Virus record (IMG/VR): IMGVR_UViG_2718217884_000003
Location: 1-41,128 of that record
DNA length: 41,128 nt
Origin: a virus
Lineage: Duplodnaviria; Heunggongvirae; Uroviricota; Caudoviricetes
Direction: 5' to 3' (one strand)
Below the pieces are notes generated by a model that was given only the letters and a program-made list of their open reading frames with translations, searched no databases and was not told the origin of the DNA. Positions within the stretch are counted from its first letter, which is position 1; each line of letters starts with the position of its first letter. Positions 20,977 to 26,206 of the stretch are shown in pieces. A program made the position numbers and the translations under genes.

Positions 20977-22445
20977 TGGCACGAAACAAGCAAGCCTCTC
21001 AGCGAACGGCGCAGGCCACCGCTGATGGCTATGAAAACTTTGTCGCCCGCGTGGGGATGCAGACGCCTAACCAGCATTCAGCATCGACCTACCGGGCAAA
21101 CTTCACCAGCCGCAACCGCATGCTGGTGGAATGGTCATATCGCGGATCGTGGGTTATCGGCGAAGCGGTCGACGCTATCCCGGACGATATGACCCGGAAA
21201 GGCATTCGCATCACTTCGGAGATTGACGCCAAAGACCGTGGCACCCTGGAAGCGCAGCTGGATGAGTTGCAGATCTGGGATGCGCTGAACGACGTGCTGA
21301 AATGGTCGCGTCTCTACGGCGGCGCGGTGGGCTTCATCATGATTGAGGGGCAGGCACCAATGACCCCGTTGCGGCTCGAAACCATTGGAGAAGGCAAGTT
21401 TAAGGGCATTCTCCCGCTCGACCGCTGGATGATTAACCCGGTGCTGACCCGCCGCATTAAAGATATGGGGCCGGACCTCGGCAAGCCTGAGTTTTACGAC
21501 GTGGTGACCACTGCAACGGGCATCCCGGCCTGGCGCATCCATCACAGCCGCCTGATTCGCTTCGACGGGGTGACGCTGCCATTCCAGCAGAAGATGACCG
21601 AAAACGAATGGGGAATGTCGGTTGTAGAGCGTATCTGGGATCGGCTTACTGCGTTCGATAGCGCTACTGTCGGCGCGGCGCAGCTGGTCTATAAAGCGCA
21701 TCTGCGTACCTATAGCGTGGAGAAGTTGCGCGAGCTTATCGCGCTTGGAGGCCCGGCGTTCGAAGCGTTGCTGAAGAACATCGGCCTGATCCGCCAGTTC
21801 CAGAGCAATGAAGGTATGACGCTCATGGACTCGCGGGATAAGTTCGAAACCCACCAGTACAGCTTTAGTGGTCTGGATGACATTCTTTCGCAGTTTGCTG
21901 AGCAGATCAGCGGTGCCGTTGGTATCCCGCTGGTACGCCTGTTCGGTCAATCCCCGAAAGGCTTCTCTACTGGTGATGCAGACCTCGCCAACTATTACGA
22001 CCGGGTGAGCTCATTGCAGGAGCGCCGCTTACGGCTGCCGATGCGCCGGATACTGGACATTATGCACCGCTCGGAACTCGGAAAGCCGCTGCCGGACGAT
22101 TTCACGTTTGAGTTTAACCCGCTATGGCAAATGTCAGACGTTGACCGATCAACGGTGGCCGTAAACACCACCAACGCGATCAGTACCGCGCTGGGCGACG
22201 GATTGATGACGCGTAAGGCGGCGATGACCGACCTGCGCGAAAACTCTGACGTCACCGGCATCGGGGCATCCATTACCGACGAGGATATCGAGAATGCCGA
22301 AGACGAAGCGCCGCCAGGCATCGGCGAACTTGGCGACAAACCGCCAGAGCCGCCAGGCGGAGATCCGATATCGAACGAGCCTACGGCAGATAGCGCGGGC
22401 GGTCGGGGATATCGTAAATGGTCGCTACGATGGTTCAAACGATAG
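20976..22445 (+). CDS. Portal protein
   Basis: 489-aa ORF directly after the large terminase; acidic Pro/Gly-rich C-terminal tail. Confidence 0.8.
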   Translation: MARNKQASQRTAQATADGYENFVARVGMQTPNQHSASTYRANFTSRNRMLVEWSYRGSWVIGEAVDAIPDDMTRKGIRITSEIDAKDRGTLEAQLDELQIWDALNDVLKWSRLYGGAVGFIMIEGQAPMTPLRLETIGEGKFKGILPLDRWMINPVLTRRIKDMGPDLGKPEFYDVVTTATGIPAWRIHHSRLIRFDGVTLPFQQKMTENEWGMSVVERIWDRLTAFDSATVGAAQLVYKAHLRTYSVEKLRELIALGGPAFEALLKNIGLIRQFQSNEGMTLMDSRDKFETHQYSFSGLDDILSQFAEQISGAVGIPLVRLFGQSPKGFSTGDADLANYYDRVSSLQERRLRLPMRRILDIMHRSELGKPLPDDFTFEFNPLWQMSDVDRSTVAVNTTNAISTALGDGLMTRKAAMTDLRENSDVTGIGASITDEDIENAEDEAPPGIGELGDKPPEPPGGDPISNEPTADSAGGRGYRKWSLRWFKR

Positions 22446-23081: not shown

Positions 23082-24314
23082 ATGAAATATTTTTTCAATA
23101 CCCGGCTGGGGGAAACCCGCTATCAGCTGGCTGACGGCTCGCTGTTGTGTAAAGACGTGCCGATAGGTCGAACGGGTAAGCAGCTCTACGGCGCTGCCGA
23201 TCTGCCAAACCTCAAACCCGACAAGCTCGGTGAGATAGTCGTAACGCGTTCTCCTGAGCAGGTATTCCATCCGGCCACGCTCGCCTCATTCGAAGGGATG
23301 AGCATCACGATCCTGCATCCTGAAGATGAAAACGGGAATGTGCGGCTGGTAAATCCCGAGAACTGGAAAGAGCTTGCGGTCGGGCATCTTCAGAACGTTC
23401 GGCGCGGGACTGGTGACCAGTCTGATTTGATGCTGGCAGACCTTATCGTCAAAGACGAAAGCGCCATTCAGCTTATCGAAGATGGTCTGCGCGAAGTGTC
23501 GTGCGGCTATGACGCGGAGTACGAGCAGACCGAGCCAGGTAAAGCCGAGCAGGTCGATATTACCGGAAACCATGTGGCTCTTGTCCCTAAAGGCAGAGCC
23601 GGAAATCGTTGTGCAATTGGAGACAGAGACACAATGGCAAATCAAAAGAAAAGCTGGTGGACCCGCATGCGCACGGCCATCAAAACGGGTGACGCTGACA
23701 CCATGAACGAACTGCTGGACTCTGCGCCAGCGGCGGTAACGGGTGACGAAGGGGATCTGCCGAGCGGCGTTAACCTCAACATTAACCTTTCACCGCAGCA
23801 ACCATTGCCGGACAAAAAGCCGGAAATGGGCGGAGATCCAACCGGCGACGGCGAGGACGATATCAAAACCTTGCTCAAAGCCCTGCTGGCTAAGCTCGAA
23901 GGAACTGCGACGGGCGATAACGACAATAAGCCTGACGAAAAAGACAAAAAAGATCCGACCGGCGACGGCGAGGACGACGAAGAGGAAACCACGATTACCG
24001 GTGACTCTGCCTATCGTGCCGAGGTTATCGTCCCGGGTATCGATCTGAGCCGTAAGGTGAAACCGACCGCGTTCAAACGTGATGTGCTGGCTGCCGCTGA
24101 CAAAACACTGGTTCGCCAGGTTGTCGGTGATGCGGATATCCGCAAATTGCCCAAGCAATCGGTAGATATGGCGTTTAACGCTGTGTCAGAGATTGCCAAA
24201 GGGCGAAACACCCGCAGCACCACGGGCGATGCACAACGTCCAAATATGGGCATGACCAGCATCGCTTCCCTGAACAAACAAAACGCCGACTTCTGGTCTA
24301 ACCGCAAAGGATAA
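23082..24314 (+). CDS. Scaffold-like protein (DUF2213-like) with acidic repeat region
   Basis: 410-aa ORF; conserved N-terminal domain, internal acidic repeats DPTGDGEDD, C-terminal basic segment. Confidence 0.6.
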   Translation: MKYFFNTRLGETRYQLADGSLLCKDVPIGRTGKQLYGAADLPNLKPDKLGEIVVTRSPEQVFHPATLASFEGMSITILHPEDENGNVRLVNPENWKELAVGHLQNVRRGTGDQSDLMLADLIVKDESAIQLIEDGLREVSCGYDAEYEQTEPGKAEQVDITGNHVALVPKGRAGNRCAIGDRDTMANQKKSWWTRMRTAIKTGDADTMNELLDSAPAAVTGDEGDLPSGVNLNINLSPQQPLPDKKPEMGGDPTGDGEDDIKTLLKALLAKLEGTATGDNDNKPDEKDKKDPTGDGEDDEEETTITGDSAYRAEVIVPGIDLSRKVKPTAFKRDVLAAADKTLVRQVVGDADIRKLPKQSVDMAFNAVSEIAKGRNTRSTTGDAQRPNMGMTSIASLNKQNADFWSNRKG

Positions 24315-25816: not shown

Positions 25817-26206
25817 ATGGCGAAAGAAAAGCTGGTTACCATCCATGTTCACACCCCGTTTACGCTGACGCTCGGCGATCAGTCAAAAAGGGAGTTTGGC
25901 CGGGGACGGCATAACGTACCGGAAGAGGTCGCGTCGCACTGGTTCACCCAGGCGCACTCCGAGCTTTCCGAAAGCGTGATTAGCGACACCGATGATCTGC
26001 AACCCATTATCGACAGCCTGCAAGCTCAGATTGCCGACAAAGATAAGCAGATTATCGATAAAGATCAGTTGATTGCCGATCTGCGAGAAGCGCTGCTCAA
26101 GCTGCAAGAGCAGAACGACAGCCTGCAAGCGCAGATTGCTGCCGCCCAGACTGGCGGTAATGGGGCGAAAGATGCCAAAGAATCAAAGCCTGCCAACAGT
26201 AAGTGA
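25817..26206 (+). CDS. Hypothetical head-associated protein with C-terminal coiled coil
   Basis: 129-aa ORF; RBS GAAGGG; heptad-like [40 protein letters not shown]. Confidence 0.5.

Follow-up and report, generated by a model that had tools for sequence, protein, structure and literature searches.

Two copies of an acidic peptide motif flank a conserved helix in the scaffold linker of a tailed-phage protease-scaffold gene of the DUF2213 family

We analysed a stretch of 41,128 nucleotides (nt), hereafter referred to as the window, which corresponds to positions 1 to 41,128 of the IMG/VR record IMGVR_UViG_2718217884_000003, a virus of the Caudoviricetes. It contains a gene for a 410-amino-acid (aa) protease-scaffold protein of the DUF2213 family, and the part of this gene that encodes the acidic linker of the protein carries a 27-base direct repeat. 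On balance it is probable, in our view, that the repeat encodes an acidic peptide motif that is under selection and has Thr-Gly-Asp (TGD) as its core, the two copies of the motif bracketing the one conserved amphipathic helix of an otherwise disordered scaffold linker. Sequence comparisons indicate that the two DNA copies, being almost identical, also act as a short-homology substrate, which appears to have given rise repeatedly to an in-frame 117-nt duplication comprising the motif, the helix and a spacer. The feature is real and non-random, and it belongs to ordinary biology as a fresh example of two known kinds, the protease-scaffold fusion and the short-direct-repeat polymorphism.

The repeat, AGATCC[A/G]ACCGGCGACGGCGAGGACGA, was recognised by reading the sequence and by a repeat search. 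Its two copies, AGATCCAACCGGCGACGGCGAGGACGA and AGATCCGACCGGCGACGGCGAGGACGA (coordinates in Table 1), are identical at 26 of their 27 positions, with 117 nt, or 39 codons, from one start to the next. They are in register with the plus-strand open reading frame (ORF), and each encodes DPTGDGEDD. A first-pass annotation, made from the sequence alone, had reported a 26-mer with one mismatch at 23835-23860 and 23952-23977; this was correct, and the repeat reaches one base further in the 5' direction. The same annotation had placed the two DPTGDGEDD copies in an acidic linker, in agreement with the composition of aa 220-300 (22 Asp and Glu versus 9 Lys and Arg) and with the low AlphaFold2 confidence of aa 220-294. 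The repeat is well beyond chance. When the codons of the whole gene were shuffled 300 times, the longest direct repeat with at most one mismatch measured 19 nt, and none of the 300 shuffles reached 27 nt; shuffling restricted to the linker codons gave 15 nt at most. The repeat is also the longest direct repeat of the entire 41-kb window. A tandem array was considered and rejected, Tandem Repeats Finder having listed no array over the repeat and, in other parts of the linker, just two weak rows of short period. Simple-sequence contingency loci consist of short head-to-tail units with frequent shifts in copy number, whereas here there are just two copies with 90 nt of unique sequence between them, each unit spans 39 codons, variants seldom occur, the change keeps the reading frame and a gain is the one product seen. 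Within the window, seven of the nine codons are identical between the copies, against 3.9 expected from codon usage (P ~0.04), so that homogenisation at the DNA level is at most a modest additional factor there.

Both sites were kept in all aligned homologues down to 75% identity. The consensus is [EKDG][PAVK]TGD[GS][ED]DD for site 1, followed by the helix, and xPTGDGEDD for site 2, followed by EEETTITGDSAY. The context of copy 1 was present in 118 IMG/VR contigs, 80 of which were fetched. Two copies were found in 80/80 of these loci, with a spacing of 117 nt in 70 loci, 105 nt in nine and 111 nt in one, and the two-site architecture is universal in this clade. In locus L016, which has 39% identity in the scaffold part, both sites read KEPTGDED and their DNA differs at 6 synonymous positions; in Hafnia phage yong1, PTGDGED occupies both sites with 5 synonymous differences. 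A peptide that is matched without matched DNA, as in these two cases, points to selection on the peptide at both sites, and its retention across the family suggests that the motif is more than a spacer. Klebsiella phage GZ7 contains PGTGDAE[ED]E twice, with 26/27 identical bases, and locus L017 contains KTKDAEGEE three times, with identical DNA.

Replacements of Gly by Cys were observed among IMG/VR loci L022-L101. Six loci carried the change at two TGD sites together (ATCDN...DPTCDGEDD), and three had PTCD at the second site only, as did the three-copy locus L021, in which both duplicated copies carry PTCD. These alleles are parallel changes at paired sites.

That the repeat could be a substrate for slippage or recombination and could vary between isolates had been proposed in the first-pass annotation, together with a comparison of copy number across related prophages. 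This expectation was borne out: variation was found, but it was rare and consisted of expansion only, without loss. No copy-number variant turned up in the 118 IMG/VR contigs or among the roughly 310-340 complete E. coli genomes with the gene. Protein searches revealed a form of 449 aa, longer by exactly 39 residues (one extra 117-nt unit), whose cluster comprises 10 distinct sequences on approximately 15 contigs from Escherichia coli, Salmonella, Citrobacter, Enterobacter and metagenomes. For scale, 333 contigs carry the protein sequence of the window gene, which belongs to a cluster of 2,308 member sequences. The middle copy of the motif in the 449-aa form is chimeric, combining the 5' context of copy 2 (AAA AAA GAT CCG) with the 3' context of copy 1 (GAT ATC AAA), which locates the junction of the duplication inside the repeat. 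An extra unit equal to the repeat spacing with a chimeric junction, the signature of duplication at short direct repeats, was present in loci L007, L008 and L018-L021.

In each of these six genes, the 117-nt unit and its duplicate are 0-4 nt apart, with every difference in the head of the repeat, whereas the distance between one 449-aa gene and another is 34-145 nt. After collapse of the duplication, L018 and L019, both from E. coli assemblies, correspond to the window gene with 1 nt difference, and L008 is 30 nt away. L020 has a background like that of Salmonella phage SEN34, a Brunovirus, at 119 nt from the window gene; L021 is nearest to the allele of L001 (23 nt), and its exchange used only GAGGACGA. 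The substitutions between 449-aa proteins are paired, one per unit. The simplest reading of these sequences is that at least four independent repeat-mediated duplications took place, in at least four backgrounds. The case thus resembles other polymorphisms generated at direct repeats of ~10-30 nt by slippage or single-strand annealing, in that the junction lies in the repeat, the unit equals the spacing and the event recurs across backgrounds. The 449-aa genes were located in intact head modules. In L007, from Enterobacter roggenkampii (GCA_053964725.1), an integrase gene directly follows the 449-aa gene instead of the cement and capsid genes, and this truncated head module marks a prophage remnant.

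Neither a one-copy (371-aa) nor a four-copy allele was found among the top 120 protein clusters, the complete E. coli genomes, IMG/VR or the metagenomes of the Joint Genome Institute (JGI). When the three-copy and one-copy 117-nt junctions were used as queries against 5,426 complete E. coli genomes, only ordinary two-copy genes were recovered, matched in two pieces. Exact-pattern scans found neither junction in IMG/VR, where there were 118 positive controls, nor in the JGI metagenomes, for which the scans have no denominator. Slippage and annealing normally give deletions at least as readily as duplications, and the lack of a deletion allele among the sequences searched therefore suggests that the phage cannot do without the helix unit. 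Proteins of 353-354 aa listed as members of the 90%-identity cluster of P0009, a 406-aa DUF2213 protein, were considered as deletion alleles and rejected as unrelated proteins (MSQNWMRHFELQ...). They resemble the product of the window ORF 33259-34323, and their membership of that cluster looks like a database clustering artefact.

The linker as a whole is a hot spot of insertions and deletions, with alleles of 392, 393, 394 and 446 aa (proteins P0020, P0021, P0025, P0027, P0115 and P0227, and locus L009). Their junctions lie at short homologies, several of them between TGD codons. The 392-aa allele has an 18-aa deletion between the codons for KTGD and VTGD (window 23685-23747 compared with P0227), deletions of 16-18 aa occur between the helix and site 2, and a separate duplication, perfect over 120 nt and joined at a TAA.CTC microhomology, accounts for the 446-aa allele. 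The window encodes a single-strand annealing protein of the Rad52/22 family (4291-4995, minus strand; E 5e-26) beside a single-stranded DNA-binding protein (3784-4287, minus strand), and these two proteins are plausible agents of the short-homology exchanges.

The central helix lies between the two repeat copies, copy 1 ending where the helix begins, and its sequence varied by no more than 2 single substitutions among the 80 IMG/VR loci. Experimental work on the DUF2213 family was found in the literature only in the form of an electron cryo-microscopy study of phage Pa193 (PMC11456595). In that structure, residues 286-326 of gp24 assemble beneath every five-fold vertex as a pentamer of helix-turn-helix elements, and the acidic turn EMSGE (301-305) is salt-bridged to R295 and K293 of the capsid protein; the authors suspect that gp24 is cleaved (PMC11456595). 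By BLASTP, residues 254-276 of the window protein (TGDGE-DDIKTLLKALLAKLEGTA) aligned with residues 303-326 of Pa193 gp24 (SGEGEVAELISQVKAILARLEGTA) at E 0.003, and KALLAKLEGTA shares 9 of 11 residues with KAILARLEGTA of the pentamer-forming interior helix. Since BLASTP and a global hhalign alignment agree in placing copy 1 on the acidic turn (E)MSGEGE, copy 1 plausibly corresponds to the capsid-contacting turn of Pa193 gp24.

Pa193 gp24 (RefSeq H6S64_gp40, putative scaffolding protein) belongs to the same Pfam family, its N-terminal domain aligns with that of the window protein at an hhalign probability of 99.4%, and its gene likewise precedes those for the cement and major capsid proteins. 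The C-terminal architecture is collinear, the central helix likewise follows an acidic [ST]-G-[DE]-G-E turn, and Pa193 gp24 repeats an acidic G-E-G-K-D motif downstream. On the other hand, the N-terminal domains are only ~24% identical, statistical support for homology of the C-terminal parts is weak, the capsid proteins cannot be aligned, and the nine-residue duplicated motif is absent from Pa193. A profile-profile alignment of the full proteins with the Pa193 family covered the N-terminal domain only.

If the motif is a selected peptide bracketing the helix, copy 1 would be the acidic turn by which the helix docks on the basic inner surface of the capsid protein, in the manner of Pa193 gp24 at the five-fold vertices, and copy 2 would provide the same contact, or a processing site, where the C-terminal domain begins. 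Duplications would arise by replication slippage or by single-strand annealing, possibly with the Rad52-family protein of the phage. The reciprocal one-copy deletion would go unseen because the helix would be lost with it, and cycles of gain and loss could occasionally re-homogenise both copies at the DNA level. Several observations weigh against this scheme. The link to the Pa193 turn is a single weak pairwise local alignment, the global hhalign alignment of the C-terminal parts alone having a probability of 5.9%, and the sequence of the acidic turn is not conserved within the Pa193 family. In addition, Pa193 gp24 has a helix before the turn, whereas copy 1 is preceded by a proline-rich, non-helical segment, and AlphaFold2 does not predict a helix-turn-helix. 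The capsid protein of the window and that of Pa193, which provides the basic contacts R295 and K293, are too diverged to be aligned (E 0.15). A single ancient duplication that recombination then spread, its units evolving in concert, would be a less parsimonious account of the 449-aa alleles. Finally, the data do not separate docking to the capsid from recognition by the protease.

The protein matched PF09979 (DUF2213, renamed Pa193_gp24) with 143.4 bits (E 8.4e-42; gathering cut-off 22 bits), aa 16-181 corresponding to profile positions 4-166 of 167. Its relatives are labelled PHROG 1961 and, as 'head maturation protease', PHROGs 12864 and 530. The DNA of the gene is 99.6% identical to that of Citrobacter phage Omnitron and 92.6% identical to that of SEN34, and the gene is present in 337 of the 5,426 complete E. 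coli genomes. It lies between a Mu-F-like head morphogenesis gene and the genes for the cement protein (PF23982/PF22758) and the major capsid protein (PF09950), an order that is kept in relatives and in Pa193. The earlier description of the gene as scaffold-like holds, given this position, the membership of PF09979 and the Pa193 homologue, a putative scaffolding protein inside the capsid (PMC11456595). However, it overlooked the assemblin-like protease domain predicted in the N-terminal 181 aa.

An AlphaFold2 model of the 410-aa protein, built from a 40-sequence alignment, shows a confident beta-rich domain (aa 1-181), a low-confidence region (aa 220-294) with one helix (aa 259-272) and then a helical C-terminal domain (aa 295-377 of the model). 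The helices of the C-terminal part lie at aa 308-316, 328-338, 341-348, 358-377 and 394-406, and its residues P318, G319, L336 and F365 are invariant. H79, S140, H164 and D181 are invariant across the 40 sequences, down to 32% identity, and the first three align with the invariant H71, S129 and H159 of the Pa193 family. The modelled N-terminal domain has the herpesvirus-protease fold of assemblin and T4 gp21-type prohead serine proteases, and the candidate residues supply the combination of His, Ser and a third His or Asp that is typical of their active sites. The gene thus encodes a predicted protease domain of the assemblin/T4 gp21 fold, followed by a scaffold part. A phmmer search of PDB sequences with the 410-aa protein gave no match even at E 10, and a Foldseek search gave nothing significant.

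At the boundary between protease and scaffold, a Met preceded by a purine-rich, Shine-Dalgarno-like sequence was present in every lineage examined, including Pa193, and stand-alone products of 217-234 aa starting at this Met occur among the 50%-identity database representatives. These observations hint at a nested scaffold product starting from M185, like that of lambda C/Nu3. Fused or nested protease-scaffold genes are known from lambda (C/Nu3), Mu (I/Z) and P2 (gpO), which share with the window gene an N-terminal protease and a C-terminal scaffold in one reading frame, although their protease families differ from that of the window. The conserved internal Met with its Shine-Dalgarno-like sequence at the domain boundary would be the counterpart of the starts of the nested products Nu3 and Mu Z. 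The T4 prohead protease gp21 (PDB 5JBL) has the T4 scaffold gp22 as its substrate; unlike T4 gp21 and the herpesvirus assemblins, with which no sequence similarity was detectable, the protease and scaffold of the window form one polypeptide.

TGD occurs eight times in the 410-aa protein, at aa 110, 202, 220, 254, 277, 293, 306 and 381 (window 23409-24230), against 0.26 expected and a maximum of 4 in 20,000 shuffles. By comparison, all other window ORFs of at least 120 aa together contain it only four times. Relatives down to 32% identity retain T-x-D at seven sites of the scaffold. In the portal protein, aa 468-473 (EPTADS; 22377-22394) represent a P-T-[GA]-D-S island in an otherwise variable C-terminal tail, which reads KPTGDS in loci L005 and L016 and TATQDS in L006. 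The island is similar to the scaffold motif, and both may be recognised by the same partner.

A role of the TGD motifs, including DPTGDGEDD, as sites recognised and cut after Asp (T-x-D) by the protein's own protease is a possibility that we take seriously while regarding it as short of probable. The scaffold would be chopped into small peptides, the helix would be excised, and matched sites would reflect co-evolution with the specificity of the enzyme. The proteases of T4, phiKZ and SPN3US cut after an acidic residue within three-residue motifs, and scaffolds are cut at several sites (PMC5694885), which fits the T4 gp21/assemblin fold of the N-terminal domain. The enrichment of TGD, the conserved T-x-D sites, the portal-tail island, the lineage-specific matched pairs, the allele with Gly replaced by Cys at two TGD sites together and the suspicion of the Pa193 authors all point the same way. 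A bolder form of this idea, put forward tentatively and on the doubtful side, is that the TGD array (seven sites in the scaffold, one in the protease domain and the portal-tail island) would be the substrate code of DUF2213 proteases, cut after Asp. The DPTGDGEDD pair would then excise a vertex-binding helix that is left in virions such as those of Pa193, and the number of helices, one in the 410-aa and two in the 449-aa protein, would be a naturally variable assembly parameter. Against cleavage, the aligned S-G-E of Pa193 lies inside the continuous modelled fragment (aa 286-326) and is hence uncut there, a three-residue site does not explain nine identical residues, and no cleavage data were found in the literature for any DUF2213 protease. 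Moreover, several TGDs directly precede predicted helices, which fits helix capping instead. Thr and Asp are favoured at helix N-termini, and T-G-D could be an N-cap or 'punctuation' of a modular helical scaffold, the nine-residue copies being two caps with similar acidic run-ins. TGD 202, 254 and 306 do lie 0-5 residues before the predicted helices 205-213, 259-272 and 308-316. However, TGD 220, 277 and 381 have no helix directly after them, capping requires neither a conserved central Gly nor nine matched residues, and the portal-tail motif would be left unexplained. We regard capping as an unlikely account.

We consider it equally unlikely that the peptide has no specific function, the repeat being a remnant of a recent micro-duplication or gene conversion in a low-complexity linker for which any acidic flexible spacer would suffice. 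Such an origin would be consistent with the linker being a hot spot of insertions and deletions (alleles of 392, 393, 394 and 446 aa), with the significant internal peptide repeats of unrelated sequence found in the linkers of 8/36 diverse family members, and with a DNA identity that slightly exceeds the codon-usage expectation in the window, is very high in GZ7 and is complete in L017. It accords poorly with the retention of both sites in the 80 loci and in the homologues of at least 75% identity, and with the conservation of the core T and D far outside the clade. A purely neutral origin is unlikely in particular because of the synonymous divergence in L016 and yong1, which keep the peptide. 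The same divergence bears on a function of the repeat as nucleic acid, be it as a structured RNA, as a signal for recoding or as DNA bound by a protein. All that speaks for such a function is how nearly perfectly the nucleotides of the two copies agree in the window. The peptide is kept while the DNA changes freely, both from lineage to lineage and from one copy to the other in L016 and yong1; the repeat is in frame, the repeat search detected no inverted repeat, and the antisense ORFs across it (23642-23992 and 23790-24158) were rejected, as they have low-complexity translations only. We regard a nucleic-acid function as extremely improbable. The reading that we favour is that of a selected motif pair around the helix.

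Table 1. Coordinates of the protease-scaffold gene and its features in the window (pLDDT, predicted local distance difference test score of the AlphaFold2 model)
Feature	Position	Strand	Remarks
Protease-scaffold gene, 410 aa, DUF2213/Pa193_gp24 family	23082..24314	+	ORF, PF09979, PHROGs
N-terminal protease domain (predicted), aa 1-181	23082..23624	+	
Candidate catalytic residues	H79 23316-23318; S140 23499-23501; H164 23571-23573	+	D181 also invariant
Candidate internal start	23619..23636	+	GGAGA 23619-23623, 10-nt spacer, ATG of M185 23634-23636
Disordered acidic linker of the scaffold part, aa 220-294	23739..23963	+	pLDDT <50
Direct repeat, copy 1	23834..23860	+	DPTGDGEDD codons 23835-23861, aa 252-260
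117-nt (39-codon) unit, doubled in 449-aa alleles	23835..23951	+	
Central amphipathic helix DDIKTLLKALLAKL, aa 259-272	23856..23897	+	DSSP helix in the AlphaFold2 monomer model, low pLDDT
Direct repeat, copy 2	23951..23977	+	DPTGDGEDD codons 23952-23978, aa 291-299; boundary of linker and C-terminal domain, pLDDT climbs from residue 295
C-terminal helical domain of the scaffold part, aa 295-410	23964..24311	+	pLDDT 75-85

A second in-frame direct repeat of the window was observed just downstream of the major capsid gene, in an ORF (25817-26206) for a coiled-coil-like protein of 129 aa. It measures 24 nt (26011-26034 and 26116-26139), with 23/24 identical bases and a spacing of 105 nt, and encodes DSLQAQIA twice.

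The structure paper on Vibrio phage XM1 lists the scaffold gene and the protease as unidentified, and proposes an unrelated protease candidate (PMC10457771). XM1 and the window have the same capsid and cement (PF23982) protein families, and by analogy a DUF2213 protein in the XM1 head module would be the obvious candidate for the XM1 scaffold and protease. DUF2213 proteins are encoded in hundreds of phage genomes, including those of therapeutic Pseudomonas Pbunaviruses, and represent a widespread, little-studied component of head assembly. Our analysis points to the arrangement motif-helix-motif as the functional core of the scaffold part, and the natural one-helix and two-helix alleles constitute a directly comparable pair. 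It also yields a testable guess at the recognition motif of DUF2213 prohead proteases, and describes what appears to be a clean natural case of short-homology duplication in which only the product of the gain survives selection.

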